Made by a program: the position numbers and the translations under genes. A DNA stretch of 20,000 nt from a bacterium (GTDB lineage Bacteria; CLD3; SB21), in NCBI GenBank assembly GCA_013360215.1, contig JABWCP010000006.1, positions 148,711 to 168,710 of the forward strand, given 5' to 3'. Below, in pieces: positions 2,250 to 15,813 of the stretch; position 1 is the stretch's first letter, and the number at the start of each line of letters is the position of its first letter. The notes below the pieces were generated by a model. That model was given only the letters and a program-made list of their open reading frames with translations, had not been told where the DNA came from and ran no database searches.

Positions 2250-3317
2250 ATGAAATCCAAGTCGGTCAAGAAAAACAAACCCACGGTAAAAAGGAATAGT
2301 GTAAAATCACAGCCAAAGATGAACGAATCAAAGAGCTCTCTATCCTATCGCGCGCTGGGCTTGACGCCCGACGATTTGCTGCGCATGTACCGGTTGATGA
2401 AACTGACACGCCAGTTTGATCAGGGCATCATACGTCTGTACCGTCAGAATAAAATGATCGGCGGTGCTTATAGCGGATGGGGTAATGAAGCGACGGCCGT
2501 AGGTAGTGCGTATCCGCTTTTGCCGCACGATTATTTGTATCCGATGCATCGCGATATCGGTGCGCATTTTACCAAAGGTCAGTCAGCCAAAGTTTTGATG
2601 CTCAACCATCTTGCCCGTGCGGAAGGCCCGACACGCGGTGTGGACGGTACGGGACATTATTATGATAAAAATCTTCGAATCGTCGGTAATATCAGCCATT
2701 TGGCAGCAATGATACCTCAAGCCGTGGGTACGGCATTGGCGTCCGTAAAGAAAAAAGAAAATGCGGTCGTGATCAATTATGTCGGTGACGGCGGTATGAA
2801 CGTCGGTGAATTTCACGAAGGCCTCAATATGGCCGCGGTATGGAAATTACCCTTTATCCTGATCATCGAAAACAATCAGTACGCGTATTCCACACCCAAT
2901 ACGTTACAGTTTGCTTGCGAAAGTCCAGTGGATCGTGCATTAGGGTATGGCATACCCGGCGTCAAAGTGGATGGTACGGATATTTTGGAAGTGTACCGTG
3001 TTTGTAAAGAAGCGTTTGAACGGGCGCGTCGCGGTGAAGGGCCGACGTTGATCGAATCGGTTACGATGCGTATGCGCGGACATGCCGAACACGACGGCCA
3101 TGAATATTATCCTCCGGGGATCTTGGAAAAATGGGAGAAGAAAGACCCGATCATGCAGTTTGAGAAATTTCTTAAATCGGAGAAATTACTCACCGATAAA
3201 ATGATCGAAGACATTGATACGTCAACCAAACAAGAAATTGATGAAGCGATCGAATATGCCGACAAAGCGCCGTGGCCAGAACCTTCGCAGGCGGCGACGT
3301 GGGTGTACGCGGAATAA
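2250..3317 (+). CDS. TPP-dependent 2-oxoacid dehydrogenase E1 alpha subunit (paralog 1)
   Basis: TPP motif GDGGMNVGEFHEGLNMAAVWKLP...ENN, RMRGHAEHD loop and KDPI motif; RBS GAGGA at 2241-2245; Lys-rich N-terminal extension. Confidence 0.92.
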   Translation: MKSKSVKKNKPTVKRNSVKSQPKMNESKSSLSYRALGLTPDDLLRMYRLMKLTRQFDQGIIRLYRQNKMIGGAYSGWGNEATAVGSAYPLLPHDYLYPMHRDIGAHFTKGQSAKVLMLNHLARAEGPTRGVDGTGHYYDKNLRIVGNISHLAAMIPQAVGTALASVKKKENAVVINYVGDGGMNVGEFHEGLNMAAVWKLPFILIIENNQYAYSTPNTLQFACESPVDRALGYGIPGVKVDGTDILEVYRVCKEAFERARRGEGPTLIESVTMRMRGHAEHDGHEYYPPGILEKWEKKDPIMQFEKFLKSEKLLTDKMIEDIDTSTKQEIDEAIEYADKAPWPEPSQAATWVYAE

Positions 3318-3356
3318 TTAAATCCTAATATTAACATTGGTAAAAAATACTTACGC

Positions 3357-4385
3357 ATGACCGGTCAAAGTAAAACAACGACAAAACCATACGCTCATTC
3401 GACGGAACTGGATCTGAAAAAATACGAGCCGACCAAAGAGCAGATGAAAGAAATGTACTATTTTATCATGCTCAATCGCGCGTTCGATGATCGCATCGCC
3501 AAACTTTACCGCCAAGGTAAAATCATCGGAGCCGCTTACGGCAGCCGCGGGCAGGAAGCCACCAGCGTGGGTTCGACGTATGCGTTGGGTCCGGATGATA
3601 TCGTCGGGCCGATTATTCGAAATGCGGGCTCCATCATCGTGCGCGGGCTACCGGTTAAAAATTTCTTATCTAATTTTGTCGGTCGTTCGACCACTCCGAC
3701 GCGCGGTCGCGATGGCAATTCGCACTTAGGTGATTTGAATATGGGCGTCTTCGCTCCGATTTCACATTTGGGGAGTCTGATCAGCAATATCGCCGGTTGT
3801 GCACTGGCATTCAAAATGAAAAACGAACCGCGTGTGGCGCTGACCTATATCGGGGACGGAGGTACGTCCACAGCCGAGTTTCACGAAGGTATGAATATGG
3901 CCGCCGTGATGAAATTACCTTTTATTTGTATTATCGAAAATAATAATTGGGCGTATTCGACACCGACGCGAACTCAAGCGATGATCAAAGATTTTGCTAT
4001 CAAAGGCAAAGCTTACGGCATGGAGGCCATCGTCGTGGACGGCAATGATGTTTTCGAGGTGTTTCGTACGACACGGTACGCGGCCGAACGCTGTCGAAAA
4101 GGTATGGGGCCTATTTTGATCGAAGCGAAAACCATGCGCATGAAAGGTCATGCGGAGCACGATGATGCGTTTTATGTTCCCAAAGAACAATTTACAGAAT
4201 GGCAGAAAAAAGACCCGATCGCGCGTGCAGAAACGTATCTTTTGGATAAAAAATACATGACCGCAACTGAAAATGAGGCCTTAAAACAACGTGTGGCGAA
4301 AGATATGGAAGAAGCGGAAGAATTTGCACTTAATGCGCCGTTTCCAGCCATGGAAGAAGCGGTGACCGGAGTATACGCTGATTAA
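3357..4385 (+). CDS. TPP-dependent 2-oxoacid dehydrogenase E1 alpha subunit (paralog 2)
   Basis: TPP motif GDGGTSTAEFHEGMNMAAVMKLP...ENN, RMKGHAEHD and KDPI; colinear with paralog 1. Confidence 0.92.
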   Translation: MTGQSKTTTKPYAHSTELDLKKYEPTKEQMKEMYYFIMLNRAFDDRIAKLYRQGKIIGAAYGSRGQEATSVGSTYALGPDDIVGPIIRNAGSIIVRGLPVKNFLSNFVGRSTTPTRGRDGNSHLGDLNMGVFAPISHLGSLISNIAGCALAFKMKNEPRVALTYIGDGGTSTAEFHEGMNMAAVMKLPFICIIENNNWAYSTPTRTQAMIKDFAIKGKAYGMEAIVVDGNDVFEVFRTTRYAAERCRKGMGPILIEAKTMRMKGHAEHDDAFYVPKEQFTEWQKKDPIARAETYLLDKKYMTATENEALKQRVAKDMEEAEEFALNAPFPAMEEAVTGVYAD

Positions 4386-5744: not shown

Positions 5745-6920
5745 TCAGCAGCAGCCATCCGGCCCACAACAGGCTTCGCTCAGAATAGTTTCATTGTAAT
5801 CCATACCTTTAGTTTCGCGCGCGTGACGGCGAGCATTCTTATTGCAATTAAAGAATTTTGCCGATTCTAAAGAAATAATCTCTTTAGGACTTACCGCAAA
5901 AATATCATTGGCGTACGGCCCTTTTTCCCGCGTATAAATGCCAAATGTTTTATCACACACGGCCATACGCTCCCCACGAAAAAGTGTATGTCCGTCATCA
6001 TCTATAACGGCTTTCCAAGGACCTTTATAGATCACGGCTTGTTGGCGTTCAAGGCAAGGACCTTCTTTTCCTTTGTAACCGATCACGGTGACCGAACGGT
6101 ATTCGATACCTTCCACCACTTGCCATGGTGAGGTTTCCCATTTGTCTAAACTAATACCGTAGAACCCCGCTTTTTCAAAAGCTTTCAAAAATTCATCCTC
6201 ACGAAATGCACCGGAGATACAGCCGCTCCAGAGTTCTGGGTTATTTTTCTGATGAAGCGGTATGTCTTCATCAGAGACTATATCCGATATAGCAAAGCGG
6301 CCGCCTGGTTTCAAAACGCGATATATTTCGGCGATGAGATTTTGACGGTCTTCTTCCCGGACAAGATTGAGTACACAATTGGACAAAACGACATCCACGG
6401 AATTGTCGTGAATCATCGGCCGTTGGTTGCGAAGTTCTTCTGTAAATAATTCCAAACGTTGCAAATCATCACCGTGTTGGATAGGGTTTTGACGCACATA
6501 AGCATCGAGCGCATCCCAATCCAATTTCAAATCCTGTATTTTTCCTCGATGAAATGTAACATTGGTATAACCCAGTTTTTGTCCGATAGGATCTTTGTAC
6601 TTGCGGGCTAAAGCTAACATTTCGGAGTTCATATCGACGCCGAGTACACGCCCTTCGGAACCTACGATTTGCGCGGCGATATAACAGATTTTTCCACCGC
6701 CGCTGCCCAAGTCCAATACCGTTTCTCCGGGGCGCACATAACGCGAGGGGTCGCCGCAACCGTAGTCACGATCAAGGATTTCCTGAGGTAAAATTTGAAG
6801 ATATTTTGAATCGTATGAAACAGGACAACATAAAGAGGCAACGGTCGTGCGTGCGCCTTCGGTATATCGTTCGGTTACCGCTTTTTCCACATTGAGTGCG
6901 AGTTCGTCGTTAGCAGACAT
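5745..6920 (-). CDS. arsM: As(III) S-adenosylmethionine methyltransferase, ArsM/AS3MT-like
   Basis: SAM motif VLDLGSGGG; conserved ArsM Cys positions LCCP, YGCG, SNCVLNL and WSGCISGA; C-terminal domain ending CCGPDGCC. ATG at 6920 follows GGGAGAG and is preferred over the ORF-track start at 6935. Confidence 0.8.
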   Translation of the reverse strand: MSANDELALNVEKAVTERYTEGARTTVASLCCPVSYDSKYLQILPQEILDRDYGCGDPSRYVRPGETVLDLGSGGGKICYIAAQIVGSEGRVLGVDMNSEMLALARKYKDPIGQKLGYTNVTFHRGKIQDLKLDWDALDAYVRQNPIQHGDDLQRLELFTEELRNQRPMIHDNSVDVVLSNCVLNLVREEDRQNLIAEIYRVLKPGGRFAISDIVSDEDIPLHQKNNPELWSGCISGAFREDEFLKAFEKAGFYGISLDKWETSPWQVVEGIEYRSVTVIGYKGKEGPCLERQQAVIYKGPWKAVIDDDGHTLFRGERMAVCDKTFGIYTREKGPYANDIFAVSPKEIISLESAKFFNCNKNARRHARETKGMDYNETILSEACCGPDGCC

Positions 6921-6939: not shown

Positions 6940-8055
6940 TTATTGAATCAAATAATAAATGCAAGCTGCGATAACAGCAGCTATGGGTAGTGTTAACGCC
7001 CATGAAAGAACGACTTGCCCTATCACTTTGAAATCGGCTTGACCGGTAATAATGCCTATTCCGGAAATAGCGCCTACGGACACATGGGTAGTGGATACAG
7101 GCAAACCCCACCGACTTGCAAAAATAACAAGAAATCCCGTGACAAGATTGGCCGTCAGTCCCTGGCCGTGGTTCATAGATGTGATTTTTTTACTCATAGT
7201 ACGCGCTACTTTGCGGGCATTGAGTAAACCGCCGATGGCCATAGCTATTGCGATGGCTACCATGGACCACTCGATGCGCATAATCTGCGCAGCAAAAACA
7301 AGCCCGACGATTTTAGGTGTATCGTTGAGACCGCGTGCAAAGCTAACCATAGCCGCGCTTAGATAATGAAGTACGTCCACCAGGCGCTGCGCTGAAATGC
7401 CCATCACGGCGCCGCCGTATCGTCTTTGGCAGGAAACTTCATCGCCAACAGTAATTTCAGGCAGGGTCACGGTCTGAAACGAAAGAGCATGCGCGGGTCG
7501 AGGGGTAGGTATGACGGTTTGGCAGGTTCCAACGCAAATGCAGTGTTCTTCTCGAATACCAGCCCAAATCCGAATTTGACGAAATATTACATAGACAATC
7601 GCGGCAACGACTACGGAAACCAACGGACTAATTAACAGAGGTATAAAAAAGGTTGAACCTAATTTTTCTGTATTTAATTGGGAACCTACAGCGAGGAAAC
7701 CTGCGCCGGTAAGCGCACCGGTTAGGCCGTGTGTCGTCGAAATGGGAAATCCGAAAAATGAAGCGATGAGAACCGTTAAACCGGCGCCAAGAGCTACTGC
7801 GGTTAAAAATTCGGGAGTAACTGTCAATGTATCCGGCACAAGCCCTTTACCTGAAAAATTACTCACGAGTGATTGAGCAATAAAAATCGAACATACCGAA
7901 CCCGCAAAGGTAGTGACGGTCGCGAGCCCAATCGAGGCTTTATATCCTAGTGCTTTACTGCCGTAGAGCGTTGCAACACCTTTAAAATTATCATTTGCAC
8001 CGTTGCTGTACGCGACAAAAAGCGCTCCGGCAAAAAGCAGTACGATCATCGCCAT
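6940..8055 (-). CDS. PiT/CysP-family inorganic anion transporter with atypical signature and Cys-rich loop
   Basis: PiT repeats NGANDNFKGVAT...PISTTH and RGLNDTPK...PVSTTH...SWALTLP; highly hydrophobic; loop HCICVGTC...SC. Confidence 0.88.
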   Translation of the reverse strand: MAMIVLLFAGALFVAYSNGANDNFKGVATLYGSKALGYKASIGLATVTTFAGSVCSIFIAQSLVSNFSGKGLVPDTLTVTPEFLTAVALGAGLTVLIASFFGFPISTTHGLTGALTGAGFLAVGSQLNTEKLGSTFFIPLLISPLVSVVVAAIVYVIFRQIRIWAGIREEHCICVGTCQTVIPTPRPAHALSFQTVTLPEITVGDEVSCQRRYGGAVMGISAQRLVDVLHYLSAAMVSFARGLNDTPKIVGLVFAAQIMRIEWSMVAIAIAMAIGGLLNARKVARTMSKKITSMNHGQGLTANLVTGFLVIFASRWGLPVSTTHVSVGAISGIGIITGQADFKVIGQVVLSWALTLPIAAVIAACIYYLIQ

Positions 8056-8093
8056 TTTTATGCCCTAATTAATTTCAAGTTATTTATTTTGAA

Positions 8094-9110
8094 TTATGCC
8101 GTTGTCCCGCCGCAACTGCTGCCCGCCCCCGCCGTACATCCGAAACAATGCGATGCAAAAAGGATAGTGCGATTTCGTATTCTCGTCGCATCAAAATTGA
8201 AAACGCTAAGCGGTTCGTGATCATGGGATTGCATGCCGAGCATTTGGTTGAAATCGCAATCGTAGATTTTTCCGTCATAACTCACACTGATCAGAGTTCG
8301 GCACATGATACCTTGCGCCGCGCCGGGATTAAATGCATTTATTAACTTCATCATGTATTCGTCGTATTTGCCCGTACGCTCAAGATCTTCCCGAAAGCGA
8401 TGGATCGGCATATTGGTGATCGTAAATAGATTATTGAAGTGAATTCCGAATTTGTCATGCAAACTGCGTTTATAGTCCGCCTCCAACGCTCCTTGAGCAG
8501 CGGGAAGGTATGTACCGACGGGGTTGTACACTAAGTTGAGCACAAGGCCTGAACCGTCTTTTCCAAAACCCAGCGCATTGAGATTTTTTAACGCCGCGAT
8601 GCTTTTATTAAAAACGCCCCGCCCGCGTTGCTTATCCGTAAAATATTCCTCATAAAAAGGTAGCGATGAAATCACTTCAATCCCGTGATCGGCGAAAAAC
8701 TGCGGCAGGTGCGTCATCGGTTGTTTGGTCAGAGGATGAGGGTCCTGCGATACGGTGAGGTTATGCCGAACCATGACGTGTTTTCCCATTCGTCGCGCTT
8801 CGGTAACCAAAAACTCAAAATGCGGATTAAGTTCCGGGGCGCCGCCGGTAATATCGAGGTTTTTTATTTCGTCATGCGCCGCAAGTATCGCCAAACAGCG
8901 ATCTACGGTAGGGCGATCCATTTGCTCGGTGCGCTTGGGTGAAGCATCCACGTGGCAATGACGGCAGGCCTGATTGCACAGTTTGGTTATATTGACTTGC
9001 AACGTATGAATGCCGAGCGGCGGTAATGTCAACTCATGCTCACGCAGTTTTTCATGAAAAGAATATTTCATATCGGCCGGAGATATCGGCAATATTTGTG
9101 GCAGTTGCAT
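8094..9110 (-). CDS. arsS: Arsenosugar biosynthesis radical SAM protein ArsS
   Basis: LQVNITKLCNQACRHCHVDASP (CxxxCxxC), DITGGAPELNP, LNLVYNP, NMPIHRF, MCRTLISVSYDGKIYDCDFNQML and the C-terminal HCFGCTAGAGSSCGG, all typical of the ArsS family. Confidence 0.9.
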   Translation of the reverse strand: MQLPQILPISPADMKYSFHEKLREHELTLPPLGIHTLQVNITKLCNQACRHCHVDASPKRTEQMDRPTVDRCLAILAAHDEIKNLDITGGAPELNPHFEFLVTEARRMGKHVMVRHNLTVSQDPHPLTKQPMTHLPQFFADHGIEVISSLPFYEEYFTDKQRGRGVFNKSIAALKNLNALGFGKDGSGLVLNLVYNPVGTYLPAAQGALEADYKRSLHDKFGIHFNNLFTITNMPIHRFREDLERTGKYDEYMMKLINAFNPGAAQGIMCRTLISVSYDGKIYDCDFNQMLGMQSHDHEPLSVFNFDATRIRNRTILFASHCFGCTAGAGSSCGGTTA

Positions 9111-9115
9111 AATTT

Positions 9116-9448
9116 TTATACGTTGAGGTTGTCTAAATTATTCAGCATTTGTACACCGTGTACGAGCGTGATGCCGGCCATCATGGCGGAGGCGACGTGT
9201 ACCGCTTCGGTCATTTGGTCGGGGCTTGCACCGCATTCGAGGCTCTGCGTCGTATAGGCGTCAATACAATAAGGACAGTTTTTAGCATGGGCTACAGCCA
9301 AAGCGATCAGGGCTTTTTCCCGTTTGGTCAATGCGCCGTCTTTGCCGGTAACCTCATTGTAATACGCAAAAAATTTATCCATCAGTTCTTTGCGAAATCT
9401 CCCTACGTCGCCAAATTTTTTAAGGTCTTCACTTTCGTAGTAATTCAT
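9116..9448 (-). CDS. AhpD/carboxymuconolactone decarboxylase family protein (arsenosugar-cluster-associated peroxidase-like)
   Basis: GALTKREKALIALAVAHAKNCPYCIDAY (CxxC) and EAVHVA..M.AG.TLVHGVQM. ATG at 9448 (MNYYESEDLKKF) follows GGGAG and gives 110 aa; stop is 5 nt from arsS. Confidence 0.85.
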   Translation of the reverse strand: MNYYESEDLKKFGDVGRFRKELMDKFFAYYNEVTGKDGALTKREKALIALAVAHAKNCPYCIDAYTTQSLECGASPDQMTEAVHVASAMMAGITLVHGVQMLNNLDNLNV

Positions 9449-9547
9449 CTTGGGGCTCCCATGTTGTAAGAATACTGATGAGGAAAAAGGATTAATTTTC
9501 TGAAGACTGAATGATGTAACTCGGAGGTAAAACAAATATTCCCATGT

Positions 9548-10876: not shown

Positions 10877-11521
10877 ATGAGGGTAGATCGTATCATCGAG
10901 GCGTTTTTACCACGTGAAGACAAATTTTTTAAACTTTTTGAAGAAACAGCCCAGCACCTGATCACGGCATCGGATCTGATGGTCAAACTGATGAATTGTC
11001 CGGCGGAGGAGCGTTTAGCCGTGAGTCAGGAAATTCATAAATTGGAGCACTTGTGCGACGACACAGCGCATCGGCTTTTTTCCGAGCTGAACGCCACATT
11101 TGTAACGCCGTTTGATCGCGAAGATATTATGATGCTGGCATCGGCACTGGACGACGTCATGGATTTTTTGGACGAAAGCGCGCGACGCATTATACTATAT
11201 AAAATCACTTCTATTCCGGCAAATATGAAACAATTGGCCGACGTGCTCAAAGAATCTATCACCGAGACACATCACGGCGTGAGCCATATTCGGAATATCC
11301 ATAAGACGGATGGTATTCGTAAAACACTGGAACGTATCCATGCCTGTGAAAACAAAGCGGATATGGTTTTTGAAATGGGAATAGCGGACCTTTTTGATAA
11401 TGAAAAAGACCCGATTAATTTGGTCAAGCTCAAAGATATCTATACCAGTCTCGAACGCTCCACGGATAAGTGCGAAGATGTCGCCAACGTGCTCGAAGCG
11501 ATCCTCATCAAGCACGCGTAA
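10877..11521 (+). CDS. DUF47 family PhoU-like phosphate transport regulator
   Basis: LPREDKFFKLF, EHLCD, TFVTPFDREDI..LASALDDVMD, ENKAD and LERSTDKCEDVANVLE; RBS GAGG; directly upstream of a pit gene. Confidence 0.92.
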   Translation: MRVDRIIEAFLPREDKFFKLFEETAQHLITASDLMVKLMNCPAEERLAVSQEIHKLEHLCDDTAHRLFSELNATFVTPFDREDIMMLASALDDVMDFLDESARRIILYKITSIPANMKQLADVLKESITETHHGVSHIRNIHKTDGIRKTLERIHACENKADMVFEMGIADLFDNEKDPINLVKLKDIYTSLERSTDKCEDVANVLEAILIKHA

Positions 11522-11536
11522 AGGGAGATATTGCTC

Positions 11537-12532
11537 ATGATGGAGCTACTTATAATTACGATAGCCTTGGCATTAATCTTTGATTTTATCAATGGCTTTC
11601 ACGATGCGGCCAATTCGATCGCAACCGTCGTTTCCACGCGCGTATTGTCGCCGTTCAAAGCGGTGATTTGGGCGGCGGCATTTAACTTTATTGCGTACTG
11701 GTTTTTTGAATTGCATGTCGCTGATACGGTCGCCAAAACAGTAAAGCCGGAGGGTTTTACTTTGGTCGTTGTTACAGCCGGATTGATCGGTGCGATCATA
11801 TGGAATTTGTTAACATGGTGGTGGGGAATTCCGTCGAGCTCCTCACACACGTTGATGGGCGGTTTCGCCGGTGCGGCTGTGGCATATGCCGGCGGTGATT
11901 TTTCTGTAGTACGCTTGGATAAAGTAACTCCGGTCGTATATTTTATCTTGCTGGCGCCGATTCTCGGTATGTTGGTTTCATATACGATTTCAGTGATTAC
12001 GATTCATATCTGCAAGCGTATGAGTCCCCATAAAGTGGACAAAGTATTTCGTCAATTGCAGTTGTTTTCTTCTGCCGCATTTAGCCTCGGTCATGGTGCC
12101 AACGATGCCCAAAAGGTTATGGGTATTATAGCCGTGGCAATGTATTCACAAAAAGTCATTCCTAGCCTTGATCACATACCGGATTGGGTTCCTTTATCAT
12201 GTCATGCAGCAATTGCGTTTGGGACCATGGCAGGCGGATGGCGTATTGTGAAAACGATGGGACAAAAAGTTACTAAACTCTCTCCGTTTGAGGGCTTTGC
12301 AGCTGAAACGGCCGGAGCAATGACACTTTTTGGAACAGGCATGACAGGTATTCCTGTCAGTACGACGCACACGATTACCGGCTCGATCATCGGCGTAGGC
12401 GTGATCAAACGCGTATCCGCCGTTCGCTGGGGCGTAACTCGCAATCTGCTGTGGGCATGGGTTTTAACCATTCCGATTTCAGGATTGTTTGGCGCGATTT
12501 GTTATTGGATTGCTTCGTTTTTTGTTTCATAA
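11537..12532 (+). CDS. pit: Inorganic phosphate transporter, PiT family
   Basis: Canonical signatures NGFHDAANSIATVV, GIPSSSSH, HGANDAQK, GIPVSTTH and AWVLTIP; ATG 11537 follows GGGAG. Confidence 0.93.
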   Translation: MMELLIITIALALIFDFINGFHDAANSIATVVSTRVLSPFKAVIWAAAFNFIAYWFFELHVADTVAKTVKPEGFTLVVVTAGLIGAIIWNLLTWWWGIPSSSSHTLMGGFAGAAVAYAGGDFSVVRLDKVTPVVYFILLAPILGMLVSYTISVITIHICKRMSPHKVDKVFRQLQLFSSAAFSLGHGANDAQKVMGIIAVAMYSQKVIPSLDHIPDWVPLSCHAAIAFGTMAGGWRIVKTMGQKVTKLSPFEGFAAETAGAMTLFGTGMTGIPVSTTHTITGSIIGVGVIKRVSAVRWGVTRNLLWAWVLTIPISGLFGAICYWIASFFVS

Positions 12533-12561
12533 AACTTCGGATTACAATTTTTATATTCGAT

Positions 12562-12596
12562 AAAAGGCTGCTCGGAAATGAGCAGCCTTTTTTTTT
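12562..12596 (+). terminator. Rho-independent terminator after DUF47-pit
   Basis: AAAAGGCTGCTC-GGAAAT-GAGCAGCCTTTT, a perfect stem followed by a T tract. Confidence 0.9.
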
Positions 12597-12681
12597 GGAT
12601 TTCTTTGTGCTTTTCTTTTTTAAACGCGATGTGTATCATGGGTAATGAATGGATTGGGGATTACATGAATTTGAGGTATGT

Positions 12682-14385
12682 ATGAAAAATAGAAGAAATA
12701 TTTCATATCTGGCTTTGATAGGTATCATCATTTCCTTTTACGGTTGTTCATCCAAATCTCCACGAACAACTCCGCCCAAGCCGCCGCGTCTTATTGTTTT
12801 TATCGCACTAGATCAGTTTCGCTATGACTATCTGACGCGGTTTAGTACGCATTTTGGACCGGACGGATTTAATTACCTCCTCAATGGCGGAGCAAGTTTT
12901 GCCAACTGCTTATATGAACAAGCCACGACGCACACATCGGTGGGGCACGCGACGATGATGAGCGGTACGTTGCCGTATCGGCATGGTATCATTGCCAACT
13001 ATTGGTGGAGCCGCGAATTGCATCGCTATATTTACGCACCGGAAGACACTTTGGCGCCGATACTGGGAATTGAAAAGCAAAAAGCAACAGACGGGCGTTC
13101 GCCGCGCAATTTTAGCGGAATCAATTTTGCCGATGCCTTACGTGAAAAAACGAACGGCCGGGCTAAAGTATTTTCCGTGTCCAATAAAGACCGCTCCGCC
13201 GTATTGATGGGCGGGAAAAATCCCAATGGCGCATATTGGATGGTAAAAAACCGCGGAGGGTTTTATACCAGCACGTATTATATGAAGGACTATCCGGTGT
13301 GGGTAAAGGATTACAATGCTCAAAAACCGGCGGACAAATATTTTGGCATGTCGTGGGACATGCTGCTGGATAAAGAAAAATATCCGGTCATGAAACCGGA
13401 GATACTTCGCTTACTGGATTTGCCGAGTTCGGGTTTTGGGCATAGTTTCCCGCATCCACTCAAAGGATTGACGTCGGACAGACCTGATACGATGTACTAC
13501 AAAGAACTGATCCATACGCCGTTTGCCAGTGAAATGATTTTGGATTTTGCAAAGGCGATTATTCAAAATGAAGCTTTAGGTTCGGACGAGGTTACGGATC
13601 TTCTTTGCATCAGTTTATCGGCCAATGACGAAATAGGGCACAGTTTCGGACCATCGAGTCCGGAGGTGATGGATATCACTGTACGGACCGACCGTTTGCT
13701 GGCGCAGTTTTTTAAGTATATCAATAATGCCGTCAGAGAAGAAGATGTCCTGTATGTGTTGACGTCCGATCATGGTGTTCCTTTTTTCCCGGAAGAAATG
13801 ACCGACCGGGGTGTGACAGCCGCACGGGTTCATCCCCGAAAATTGGCCGCTGTGGCCGATTCGATCATGGCTTTGAAGTACGGAAAATTGCCTCAGGGAA
13901 AACAATACGTTGATCGGATAGCGTACCCGGATTTGTATTTTGACGGCCGTGTTTTGGCGGAAAAAAAGATTGATAAAGAAGAAGCGTCCGATTATATTAG
14001 CGCGGTTTTTGAACAATCGCTGCCGATCATCTATAGAGCGTATTCGGGCACGCGGTTAAAGCGCGGTCTAGTGCCGTCCGATCCTATATCCGAAGCTGTA
14101 CGTAAAAGCTTCCATTCTCGCCTGAGCGGGGATGCCGTGATAGTGCTAAAACCTTTTCACGTATGGGATTCCAATGGCCTAGGAACCGAACATAGTCTTC
14201 CGTATGCGTATGATGCGCAGGTGCCTTTGATATTCAAAGGAAAACGTTGGATCAAAAGCGGATTGTACAAAGACGAAGTCGCACCGACCGACATAGTTCC
14301 CGTTTTGTCGGTGATCACCGGTTGCGAAGATCCGGGCGGTAGAGATGGACAAGTGCCCGATCAGTTATTGAAATTTTCAAAATAG
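12682..14385 (+). CDS. Alkaline phosphatase superfamily lipoprotein, PafA/PhoK type
   Basis: DQFRYDYL, Thr nucleophile region TTHTSVGHAT, GIIANYW, SNKDRSAV, NDEIGHSFGP, TSDHG and GTEH...YDAQVPL. Lipobox FYG|C. ATG 12682 follows GAGG and is preferred over 12649. Confidence 0.88.
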   Translation: MKNRRNISYLALIGIIISFYGCSSKSPRTTPPKPPRLIVFIALDQFRYDYLTRFSTHFGPDGFNYLLNGGASFANCLYEQATTHTSVGHATMMSGTLPYRHGIIANYWWSRELHRYIYAPEDTLAPILGIEKQKATDGRSPRNFSGINFADALREKTNGRAKVFSVSNKDRSAVLMGGKNPNGAYWMVKNRGGFYTSTYYMKDYPVWVKDYNAQKPADKYFGMSWDMLLDKEKYPVMKPEILRLLDLPSSGFGHSFPHPLKGLTSDRPDTMYYKELIHTPFASEMILDFAKAIIQNEALGSDEVTDLLCISLSANDEIGHSFGPSSPEVMDITVRTDRLLAQFFKYINNAVREEDVLYVLTSDHGVPFFPEEMTDRGVTAARVHPRKLAAVADSIMALKYGKLPQGKQYVDRIAYPDLYFDGRVLAEKKIDKEEASDYISAVFEQSLPIIYRAYSGTRLKRGLVPSDPISEAVRKSFHSRLSGDAVIVLKPFHVWDSNGLGTEHSLPYAYDAQVPLIFKGKRWIKSGLYKDEVAPTDIVPVLSVITGCEDPGGRDGQVPDQLLKFSK

Positions 14386-14838: not shown

Positions 14839-15813
14839 ATGGCTAATATTACATATCTCGAAGCCATTTCGATGGGTTTGCGCGAAGAGATGCAGCGCGA
14901 CGGCAATGTATTTCTGATCGGTGAAGACATCGGTGTCTATGGCGGCGCGTTCAAAGTAACCAAAGGATTTATCGACGAGTTTGGCGCCGAGCGTGTTATG
15001 GATACGCCGATTTCCGAAGCCGGTATTATCGGTGTGTGTGTAGGCTCCGCGCTTATGGGGATGCGTCCCGTGGCGGAAATGCAGTTTGCCGATTTTATTT
15101 CCTGCGGATTCAATCAGCTTGTCAATCAGGCCGCTAAAATTCACTACCGATGGGGCGAGGCGGTACCGATGGTCGTTCGTTGTCCCTCGGGCGGTGGCGT
15201 GCACGGCGGTCCTTTTCACTCACAAAATCCCGAAGCATGGTTTTTTCACGTACCGGGATTAAAAGTGGTTTCCCCGTCAACGCCCTACGATGCCAAAGGG
15301 TTGATCAAAGCGGCGATTCGTGACAATAATCCTGTATTATATTTTGAGCACAAGTTTTTGTATCGTCGTATCAAAGGGGAAGTTCCGGAAGACGACTACA
15401 TCGTGCCGATCGGCAAAGGGGACATCAAGCGCGAAGGTAAAGACATGACGGTCGTGGCGTACAGTTCGGCTGTGCATTGGGCGCTCGAAGCGGCAGAGAT
15501 CATCGAAAAAGAGGGCGTCAGCGTCGAAGTGCTCGATCTGCGCAGCATTTTACCGTACGATAAGGAACTGATTCTCCAATCGGTTCGCAAAACCAATCGA
15601 GTCATCGTCGCTCACGAAGCTACGCTAACCGGCGGGGTCGGTGGCGATATTGCAGCGTTCATCACCGAACACGCTTTTGAATCGCTCGATGCGCCGGTGA
15701 AACGACTTGCGGCGATTGATACACCCGTGCCGTACAGCCCGCCACTCGAAGCATATTTCCTTCCCAACAAGGACAAAATGCTGGCGATGATGCGCGAGCT
15801 CGCGGCTTACTGA
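14839..15813 (+). CDS. 2-oxoacid dehydrogenase E1 beta subunit
   Basis: GEDIGVYGGAFKVT, DTPISE, EMQFADF, GGPFHSQNPEAWF, FEHK, DLRSI and PVPYSPPLE. Confidence 0.95.
   Translation: MANITYLEAISMGLREEMQRDGNVFLIGEDIGVYGGAFKVTKGFIDEFGAERVMDTPISEAGIIGVCVGSALMGMRPVAEMQFADFISCGFNQLVNQAAKIHYRWGEAVPMVVRCPSGGGVHGGPFHSQNPEAWFFHVPGLKVVSPSTPYDAKGLIKAAIRDNNPVLYFEHKFLYRRIKGEVPEDDYIVPIGKGDIKREGKDMTVVAYSSAVHWALEAAEIIEKEGVSVEVLDLRSILPYDKELILQSVRKTNRVIVAHEATLTGGVGGDIAAFITEHAFESLDAPVKRLAAIDTPVPYSPPLEAYFLPNKDKMLAMMRELAAY

Follow-up and report, generated by a model that had tools for sequence, protein, structure and literature searches.

To our knowledge, the chemistry of bacterial arsenosugar synthesis is known for the first two enzymes only, and no transporter was found assigned to this pathway in the searchable (open-access and bioRxiv) literature. 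A close described system is the arsM-arsS pair of Synechocystis sp. PCC 6803, whose two genes are transcribed together and in which ArsS acts on the product of ArsM; arsenate is described as entering cells via phosphate transporters (bioRxiv 10.1101/2022.09.23.509062). ArsS adenosylates trivalent dimethylated arsenic (DMAs(III)) to 5'-deoxy-5'-dimethylarsinoyladenosine (PMC13598754). On the side of transport, the reference is TmPiT of Thermotoga maritima, a Na+-dependent phosphate transporter and model of human SLC20, with which the PiT motifs G-x-N-D and the P-x-S-T-T hairpin tips were defined (PMC7413737). The present analysis deals with a stretch of 20,000 nucleotides (the window) from a bacterium of the GTDB lineage CLD3; SB21 (assembly GCA_013360215.1, contig JABWCP010000006.1, positions 148,711 to 168,710). 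A gene at 6940-8055 on its minus strand encodes a PiT-family permease of 371 amino acids (aa), which was assigned to a Cys-hairpin subfamily ('PiTx') on the basis of its translation, the Pfam profile PF01384 and an AlphaFold2 model. The operon in the window contains the same two enzymes as the co-transcribed Synechocystis pair, with the permease between their genes and an AhpD-like gene first, whereas the pair, as it is described in that source, comes with no dedicated transporter.

The four genes form an operon on the minus strand, arranged head to tail in the order AhpD-like, ArsS, permease, ArsM, with gaps of 5, 38 and 19 nt. The first gene (9116..9448) encodes an AhpD/CMD-family 'arsenosugar biosynthesis-associated peroxidase-like protein' with a CxxC motif (TIGR04169, 159.9 bits vs a cut-off of 120); its start was placed at the ATG at 9448, while the longest open reading frame (ORF) begins with TTG at 9535. 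ArsS (8094..9110), the radical S-adenosylmethionine (SAM) enzyme of arsenosugar synthesis, reached 427.1 bits against TIGR04167 (cut-off 300) and consists of Radical_SAM and DUF3641 domains; its stop codon precedes the permease start by 38 nt, in the same orientation. The ArsM-type As(III) SAM methyltransferase (5745..6920) starts with the ATG at 6920, 19 nt past the permease stop. Its best NCBIfam matches were to ArsM models, all of which it hit with scores under their cut-offs: NF040538 (361.2 vs 500), NF008823 (198.4 vs 263) and NF038099 (126.5 vs 400). The protein carries CC, YGCG, SNCV and GC[IVL]xGA motifs, which we take to be the ArsM Cys motifs that hold the candidate As(III) ligands, and its C-terminus reads ...CCGPDGCC. 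Two ArsM types, the window's type of about 390 aa and a 322-aa NF038099 type, were found beside the permease in the neighbourhood sample described below (39 loci), and both end in a C-terminal ...G-C-C tail (5745-5790 in the window). This conserved terminal dithiol may have a role in arsenic transfer.

Linkage of the permease to arsenic-carbon chemistry is strong across the subfamily. For the neighbourhood sample, 80 loci were kept from at least 590 stretches, and their ORFs were called and clustered, the clusters being named by Pfam and NCBIfam (ArsM and CMD counts were taken from the ORF clustering). ArsS was present in 37 of the 80 loci, an ArsM-type gene in 39, and a radical-SAM/ArsM fusion in two. 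At least one of these three lay within 7 kb of the permease in 46 of the 80 loci; the preliminary description of the window, which had proposed an arsenic-specialised carrier, had named enrichment beside arsS/arsM in advance as a test, and a recurrent linkage was indeed observed. Among loci with at least 5 kb on each side, 28 of 45 had at least one arsenic gene. The distances are often short, with ArsM no more than 300 nt from the permease in 30 of the 80 loci and ArsS in 21. Linked loci were found in Bacteroidota, Cyanobacteriota, Verrucomicrobiota, Planctomycetota, Pseudomonadota, Acidobacteriota and Omnitrophota as well as in the window's own phylum. The order of genes differs among them: ArsS, permease, ArsM in the window; ArsM, permease, ArsS in Verrucomicrobiota; ArsM, permease, ArsS, VTT/DedA in cyanobacteria; and, in Flavobacteriaceae, AhpD-like, ArsS, rhodanese (NF045521), TIGR04282 transferase, purine nucleoside phosphorylase, ArsM, permease, fatty-acid hydroxylase, DUF547 and TIGR04283 glycosyltransferase. 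Such variation between phyla favours selection over the inheritance of one frozen operon.

The permease itself is a member of a large, conserved PiT subfamily. It matched the Pfam PHO4 profile (PF01384) from end to end with 220.1 bits (cut-off 33.7; residues 18-363, profile positions 1-350 of 350), and it has the PiT fold and the two inverted repeats of the family, G19-A-N-D22 with P104-I-S-T-T108 and G242-L-N-D245 with P319-V-S-T-T323. It is neither a PitA (NCBIfam NF033774, 85.3 bits, below the cut-off of 800) nor a member of the CysP group, whose Bacillus subtilis representative, a PiT-family sulfate permease, shows that the family can change its anion (NF053884, 73.4 bits, below the cut-off of 400). 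The N-repeat signature GANDNFKG (residues 19-26, within SNGANDNFKG at 17-26; 7978..8001, minus strand) includes N21 and D22, which are anion/cation ligands, and the subfamily-specific K25. The C-repeat signature R241-GLNDTPK (GLNDTPK being residues 242-248; 7312..7335, minus strand) includes the ligands N244 and D245 and the cationic R241 and K248.

A comparator is available in the same window, where a PhoU_div (DUF47) gene precedes an ordinary PiT gene (pair at 10877..12532, plus strand; PF01865, 85.2 bits; PF01384, 310.2 bits). The ordinary PiT (11531-12532, plus strand) starts 3.5 kb from the permease, and no further PHO4 gene is present in the host genome (3.72 Mb, 56 contigs). Its motifs are NGFHDAANS and GHGANDAQK. 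Both the distance and the contrast between GANDNFKG/GLNDTPK in the permease and GFHDAANS/GANDAQK in the ordinary PiT, to which attention had been drawn earlier, were confirmed, the motifs being read from the translations. The two proteins belong to the same Pfam family and are 24% identical; the ordinary PiT lacks a 56-residue insert (an alignment gap), has GFHDAAN in its N-repeat, and carries Q, E and H in place of H230, N303 and R241 of the permease. On the other hand, the C-repeat ends in Lys in both, as GANDAQK in Escherichia coli PitA-type or ordinary PiT proteins and as GLNDTPK in the permease.

Relatives of the permease are numerous. A word-indexed protein search scored 8,000 candidates, of which 7,994 had E<=0.001, and the best 120 of these were 56-66% identical to the permease and came from Acidobacteriota, Thermodesulfobacteriota, KSB1, Elusimicrobiota, Methylobacter, Dehalococcoidia and others; those of the 120 that are named in the database are called 'inorganic phosphate transporter' or 'anion permease'. 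A HMMER search over 1.84 billion representatives yielded 559 matches at E<=1e-30, and at least 590 species genomes (one genome per species scanned) encode a relative with both motifs, culturable carriers among them being Mariniflexile, Altibacter and Xenococcus strains. Two alignments were used to follow conservation, one of 22 homologues with 56-66% identity from many phyla and one of 85 representatives reaching down to 38% identity. Both motifs together with C172, C174, C209, R212, Y213 and G215 are invariant in the first. In the second, every motif position is kept in 78-85 of the 85 sequences and all three Cys in 70; N21, D22, R241, S321 and T322 are found in all 85, and K25, N244, D245, P247, K248, H230 and H324 in 84. 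The invariance in the 22 homologues and the retention across the 85 representatives imply that the motif and Cys features did not arise by chance. In two genomes the permease match is split into two pieces in different frames (G014:C9:54839-55932 and G048:C1:614678-615685), a pattern that could stem from a sequencing error as well as from a frameshift in a gene that is possibly decaying.

Comparison with TmPiT places the differences outside the direct anion ligands. The AlphaFold2 model built on the 85-row alignment has a pLDDT of 94.6 and a pTM of 0.90, and its only PDB matches at E<=0.001 were chains A and B of TmPiT 6L85 (Foldseek TM-score 0.72, E 2e-11), which was also matched by phmmer (E 8e-26; about 23% identity). 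In TmPiT, phosphate is bound by D22, D258, S105/T106/T107 and S345/T346/T347, Na1 and Na2 by N21/D22 and N257/D258 together with hairpin-tip residues, and a third Na+ by T29, Q243, S247 and D327, the last of which corresponds to E575 of human PiT2 (PMC7413737). According to the HMMER alignment, all eight phosphate ligands are kept in the permease as D22, D245, S106/T107/T108 and S321/T322/T323, and these positions are invariant or nearly so across the subfamily alignments. N21, N244 and T29 are kept as well, so that TmPiT and the permease share the fold, the repeats, the anion ligands and the Asn/Asp cation ligands. Altered signatures had been taken as a pointer to a new substrate; this argument does not carry by itself, since the residues that bind the anion directly are canonical and only flanking signature positions differ.

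The residue differences introduce cationic side chains and affect the third cation site. TmPiT GANDVANS aligns with GANDNFKG of the permease, and the Asn found three positions past each Asp in TmPiT is Lys in the permease (K25 and K248). Q243 of TmPiT corresponds to H230 and D327 to N303; the permease thus lacks the acidic side chain that Na+-dependent TmPiT/SLC20 proteins have at their third Na+ site, and N303 is at least 90% conserved in the subfamily. Before the second motif, both TmPiT and the ordinary PiT of the window have His where the permease has R241. Taken together, these replacements suggest a tetrahedral-anion site that is intact and an ion coupling that has changed, in which the place of Na+ may be taken by the added cationic side chains and coupling to protons may be made possible by His230.

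The other subfamily-specific feature is an insert at residues 166-221 (7393..7560, minus strand). TmPiT has both termini outside and a scaffold and dimer domain formed by TM4/TM5 (PMC7413737). This domain is missing from the permease model, in which TM3 (129-165) and TM6 (222-254) are connected by a beta-hairpin with strands 171-183 and 193-205, a short helix (206-213) and a short strand, and no scaffold helices are present. The insert is probably cytoplasmic, judging from the homology to TmPiT and from Arg/Lys-rich flanks (R159, R162, R168 and the K290-region loop). Its sequence, EEHCICVGTC...EVSCQRRY, has Cys at 172, 174, 178 and 209. A loop with four Cys had been described before, and all four are there; C178 is mostly replaced by E, T or A in the 85 representatives, which reduces the conserved unit to three. 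C172 and C174 are two residues apart on one strand and therefore on the same face, and C209 is in the helix after the partner strand; on the modelled strand topology the three thiols should meet at the hairpin base near the inner gate.

A survey of the permease of the window and 73 homologues taken from the loci (74 in all) found three or more loop Cys in 63, none in 11, and one or two in no case. Such an all-or-none distribution is expected of one functional unit. The 11 Cys-less proteins all belong to Flavobacteriaceae and have kept the length of the loop (67-73 residues), and in some other Flavobacteriaceae the third Cys is found four residues earlier or at both positions. In a quick maximum-likelihood tree the Cys-less state requires four changes, at least three of which are forced by well-supported branches. 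Three-cysteine As(III) sites are found in ArsR-type repressors and in ArsD. Both these sites and the candidate site of the permease consist of a C-x-C pair and one distant Cys that are conserved together; the putative site of the permease is located on a beta-hairpin of a membrane transporter, whereas those of ArsR and ArsD are on DNA-binding and chaperone folds.

In addition to the arsenic enzymes, a DUF547 protein is a recurrent neighbour of the permease (21 loci). In two representatives (P0136 and P0199, natural fusions) it is fused to the permease C-terminus straight after the last helix, a fusion point that places DUF547 on the periplasmic side. A signal-peptide-like or lipoprotein-like N-terminus was found in 23 of the 25 members of the DUF547 cluster, the other two being truncated fragments. 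The motif C-[AG]-[AS]-x-[SG]-C-P is present in all 25, with both Cys and the Pro invariant in an alignment of 23 rows. A fusion of DUF547 with a glutaredoxin domain is described for plants (PMC13621322). The window's own genome has a pair of DUF547 and family-2 glycosyltransferase genes on another contig (C45; L081:7758-9649), away from the ArsS operon and preceded by a 147-aa ORF without a Pfam match. A complex prediction for the permease and this DUF547 protein (residues 24-246) gave a score of 0.00 against a mark of 0.32, which is evidence neither way.

Co-occurrence with ArsS was further examined at the level of whole genomes. Among 20 genomes of the window's own phylum, the permease was found in 12 and ArsS in 14; 12 genomes had both, two had ArsS alone and six had neither, and in eight of 11 permease-containing relatives the two genes lay within 2 kb on one contig. 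Of the 401 genomes in the Flavobacteriaceae sample, 36 had the permease and 307 had ArsS, and ArsS was present in every one of the 36 permease genomes, these genomes being kin and non-independent. A sample of 201 Verrucomicrobiota genomes, including the seed, had four with the permease, nine with ArsS and two with both (one being the seed). Of 15 loci without ArsS within 7 kb, ArsS was found elsewhere in 10 genomes and in none of the other five. The ArsS-less operon of Scalindua contains the permease, DUF547, thioredoxin-like and AhpD-like genes and, four genes downstream, a fusion of 871 aa that combines radical-SAM/SPASM and arsenite-methyltransferase parts (L005:12310-14925 and L007:12395-14965; NF008823, 239.7 bits vs 263); ArsS was not found in a second Scalindua genome either. 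This fusion is a candidate for a different enzyme that forms carbon-arsenic bonds. A Verrucomicrobiota genome without ArsS (G615) has a divergent permease in the order DUF547, radical-SAM/ArsM, MerA-like, permease, VTT, MerA-like, TIGR04282 and glycosyltransferase.

Two further observations were made in these samples. In two Acidobacteriota (L001:5616-11969 and L051), where ArsS was not found, the permease lies between two radical-SAM/SPASM genes; a B12-binding radical-SAM gene with weak likeness to PhpK P-methyltransferases follows it, and acyl carrier protein, FabA-like, short-chain dehydrogenase/reductase and zinc alcohol dehydrogenase genes are located upstream. The 307 Flavobacteriaceae with ArsS over the TIGR04167 cut-off have it in a cluster with ArsM, the phosphorylase, two 'arsenosugar' transferases, rhodanese and DUF547, and on these gene contents organoarsenical synthesis looks near-universal in heterotrophic Flavobacteriaceae.

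With regard to function, we tentatively favour, at somewhat less than an even chance, the reading that the permease is a secondary-active, accessory importer of an arsenic oxyanion, most simply arsenate, which would feed ArsM and ArsS and carry a dispensable As(III)-binding thiol module. Import of arsenate would be the most economical explanation on account of the phosphate-like anion site, the importing nature of PiT proteins, the use of phosphate carriers by arsenate and the linkage to arsenic genes. The permease would take up the tetrahedral anion from the periplasm, the cell's arsenate reductase would convert it to As(III), ArsM would methylate As(III), and ArsS would adenosylate the resulting DMAs(III). 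Ion coupling would differ from that of Na+-dependent PiT proteins, with N303 and H230 at the third site and K25, K248 and R241 beside the two Asn-Asp pairs. C172, C174 and C209 might form a three-thiolate As(III) site that either signals cytosolic As(III) to the transporter, as a form of feedback gating, or hands As(III) on, and this module would be helpful and not essential. The earlier proposal of an arsenic-specialised paralog is thus retained insofar as the protein falls into a PiT subfamily of its own, whose tie to arsS/arsM shows in operon structure, synteny and co-occurrence, and insofar as three of the four loop Cys are conserved; it is weakened where it relied on the altered signatures, the anion ligands being unchanged.

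Several findings weigh against this reading. The conserved phosphate ligands fit phosphate as well as arsenate, and the closeness of the thiols rests on strand topology rather than on model coordinates. Within Flavobacteriaceae, at least three independent losses of the triad took place while the cluster context was retained, and eight of the 11 Cys-less permeases are still beside ArsS or ArsM, so that the thiols cannot be indispensable to the ArsS-linked role; conservation of the loop Cys in arsS-linked homologues, which had been expected if the loop serves arsenic, therefore holds for most of them with these eight as exceptions. The presence of the permease in ArsM/ArsS clusters is recurrent (46/80 loci) yet optional, since 271 of the 307 ArsS-positive Flavobacteriaceae genomes are without it. 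All five such genomes that were checked have the same cluster with an ArsM over the cut-off, and in these clusters the gap lies between ArsM and the hydroxylase/DUF547 genes, which implies that the permease is an optional insert and an accessory part. ArsS was found in only one of three non-seed Verrucomicrobiota permease genomes, a related neighbour was not seen within the 14 kb examined around the permease of another Verrucomicrobiota genome (G597), and ArsS was not found in the genomes of loci L001, L005, L007, L009, L034 and L051. Finally, the window's own genome has an acr3 gene (450.5 bits, over the cut-off) and an arsC-like gene of the low-molecular-weight-phosphatase type (124.9 bits vs 174.3) on contig C49 (53159-54598), far from the ArsS operon, which indicates that arsenic can be handled independently of the permease operon. 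The arsC-like gene beside acr3 also means that arsenate reduction needs no thiols of the transporter. A thiol-relay arsenate reductase within the transporter was considered and is not preferred, given this gene pair and the dispensable triad.

Other substrates have to be weighed against the same evidence. The permease might be an ordinary phosphate carrier that supplies or balances phosphate, for instance by out-competing arsenate or feeding phosphorolysis, and travels in the cluster as a passenger that does not handle arsenic. Conservation of all eight TmPiT phosphate ligands would be expected in this case, as would the adjacency of the window's operon to the PhoU_div-PiT pair and the PafA-type alkaline phosphatase and the occurrence of a phosphate user, purine nucleoside phosphorylase, in the flavobacterial cluster. 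Such a role is nevertheless unlikely: an ordinary PiT is already encoded 3.5 kb off, the operon of the window contains no phosphorylase, K25, R241, K248, H230, N303 and the hairpin are conserved over phyla, and the linkage to ArsM/ArsS recurs in differing gene orders. The fact that an ArsM-type gene is the tightest neighbour (no more than 300 nt away in 30/80 loci) could instead point to a carrier of methylated arsenic oxyanions, i.e. methylarsonate or dimethylarsinate, which would salvage ArsS precursors or export oxidised by-products of ArsM. Methylated As(V) species are tetrahedral and could perhaps fit a widened PiT site. No residue change that makes room for a methyl group was identified, however, the known PiT members are described as ion-coupled importers of inorganic anions (PMC7413737), and import of dimethylarsinate would make ArsM redundant, although ArsM is the most constant neighbour; we hold this possibility to be no more probable than the phosphate carrier.

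Still less probable is the transport of another redox-active oxyanion (selenite, tellurite, thio-oxyanions or sulfate), with the Cys acting as a redox relay that nearby thiol-disulfide proteins serve. Such proteins do accompany the permease, in that AhpD-like proteins, ResA-like thioredoxins, MerA-like flavin disulfide reductases, rhodanese and DedA/VTT membrane proteins are recurrent neighbours, and the exported DUF547 fused to the permease in two representatives has an invariant C-x4-C-P; moreover, some ArsS/ArsM relatives are selenoproteins according to the names of NCBIfam models. Yet the sole enzymes of known chemistry in the clusters, ArsM and ArsS, act on arsenic, the variants without the triad retain the same neighbours, and the score against the CysP model (73.4 bits vs 400) offers no help to sulfate.

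The arsenate-importer reading could also be extended into a broader view, which we regard as improbable: many phyla would take up arsenic deliberately by a dedicated carrier, which would contain its own three-thiolate As(III) sensor and by means of it hold uptake to what ArsM/ArsS can process, DUF547, exported and bearing C-x4-C-P, would be a periplasmic partner capturing arsenic, and arsenosugar-type compounds would be wanted products. If this were true, these compounds could be, for instance, constituents of the membrane or the surface, and more than waste of detoxification. In the open-access and bioRxiv literature, no paper was found that ties a PiT transporter or a bacterial DUF547 to arsS/arsM, nor any published study of the permease or of bacterial DUF547. 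What appears to be new here is a PiT member that combines defined residue changes with an insert and a genomic role that are both new, its function being predicted. The permease lies between ArsM and ArsS in many phyla and differs by few defined residue changes and a removable three-Cys module, and it may therefore bear on how arsenic enters the pathway, how a PiT protein is tuned to arsenate over phosphate, and how a transporter senses As(III). An arsenic role would also correct the common labels 'inorganic phosphate transporter' and 'anion permease'.

Across a secreted Endonuclease_NS gene from the operon lie the PhoU_div-PiT pair and the PafA-type alkaline phosphatase (10877-14385), the latter scoring 392.7 bits (cut-off 650). 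These phosphate-scavenging genes may or may not share their regulation with the arsenic operon. Promoter-like and terminator-like sites in the window were no commoner than in shuffled sequence, and an Rfam scan of the window found one tRNA and nothing else. Contigs from three RNA libraries cover parts of ArsS and of the AhpD-like gene only (8068-9404); the permease was represented by no contig from these libraries, which is not readable as silence. At the DNA level, the stretch is present in activated-sludge and related metagenomes from nine studies. Elsewhere in the window, two tandem paralogues of E1_dh (dehydrogenase E1 alpha-type) are located at 2250-4385, and a transketolase-like E1 beta-type gene is found 10 kb off, at 14839-15813.

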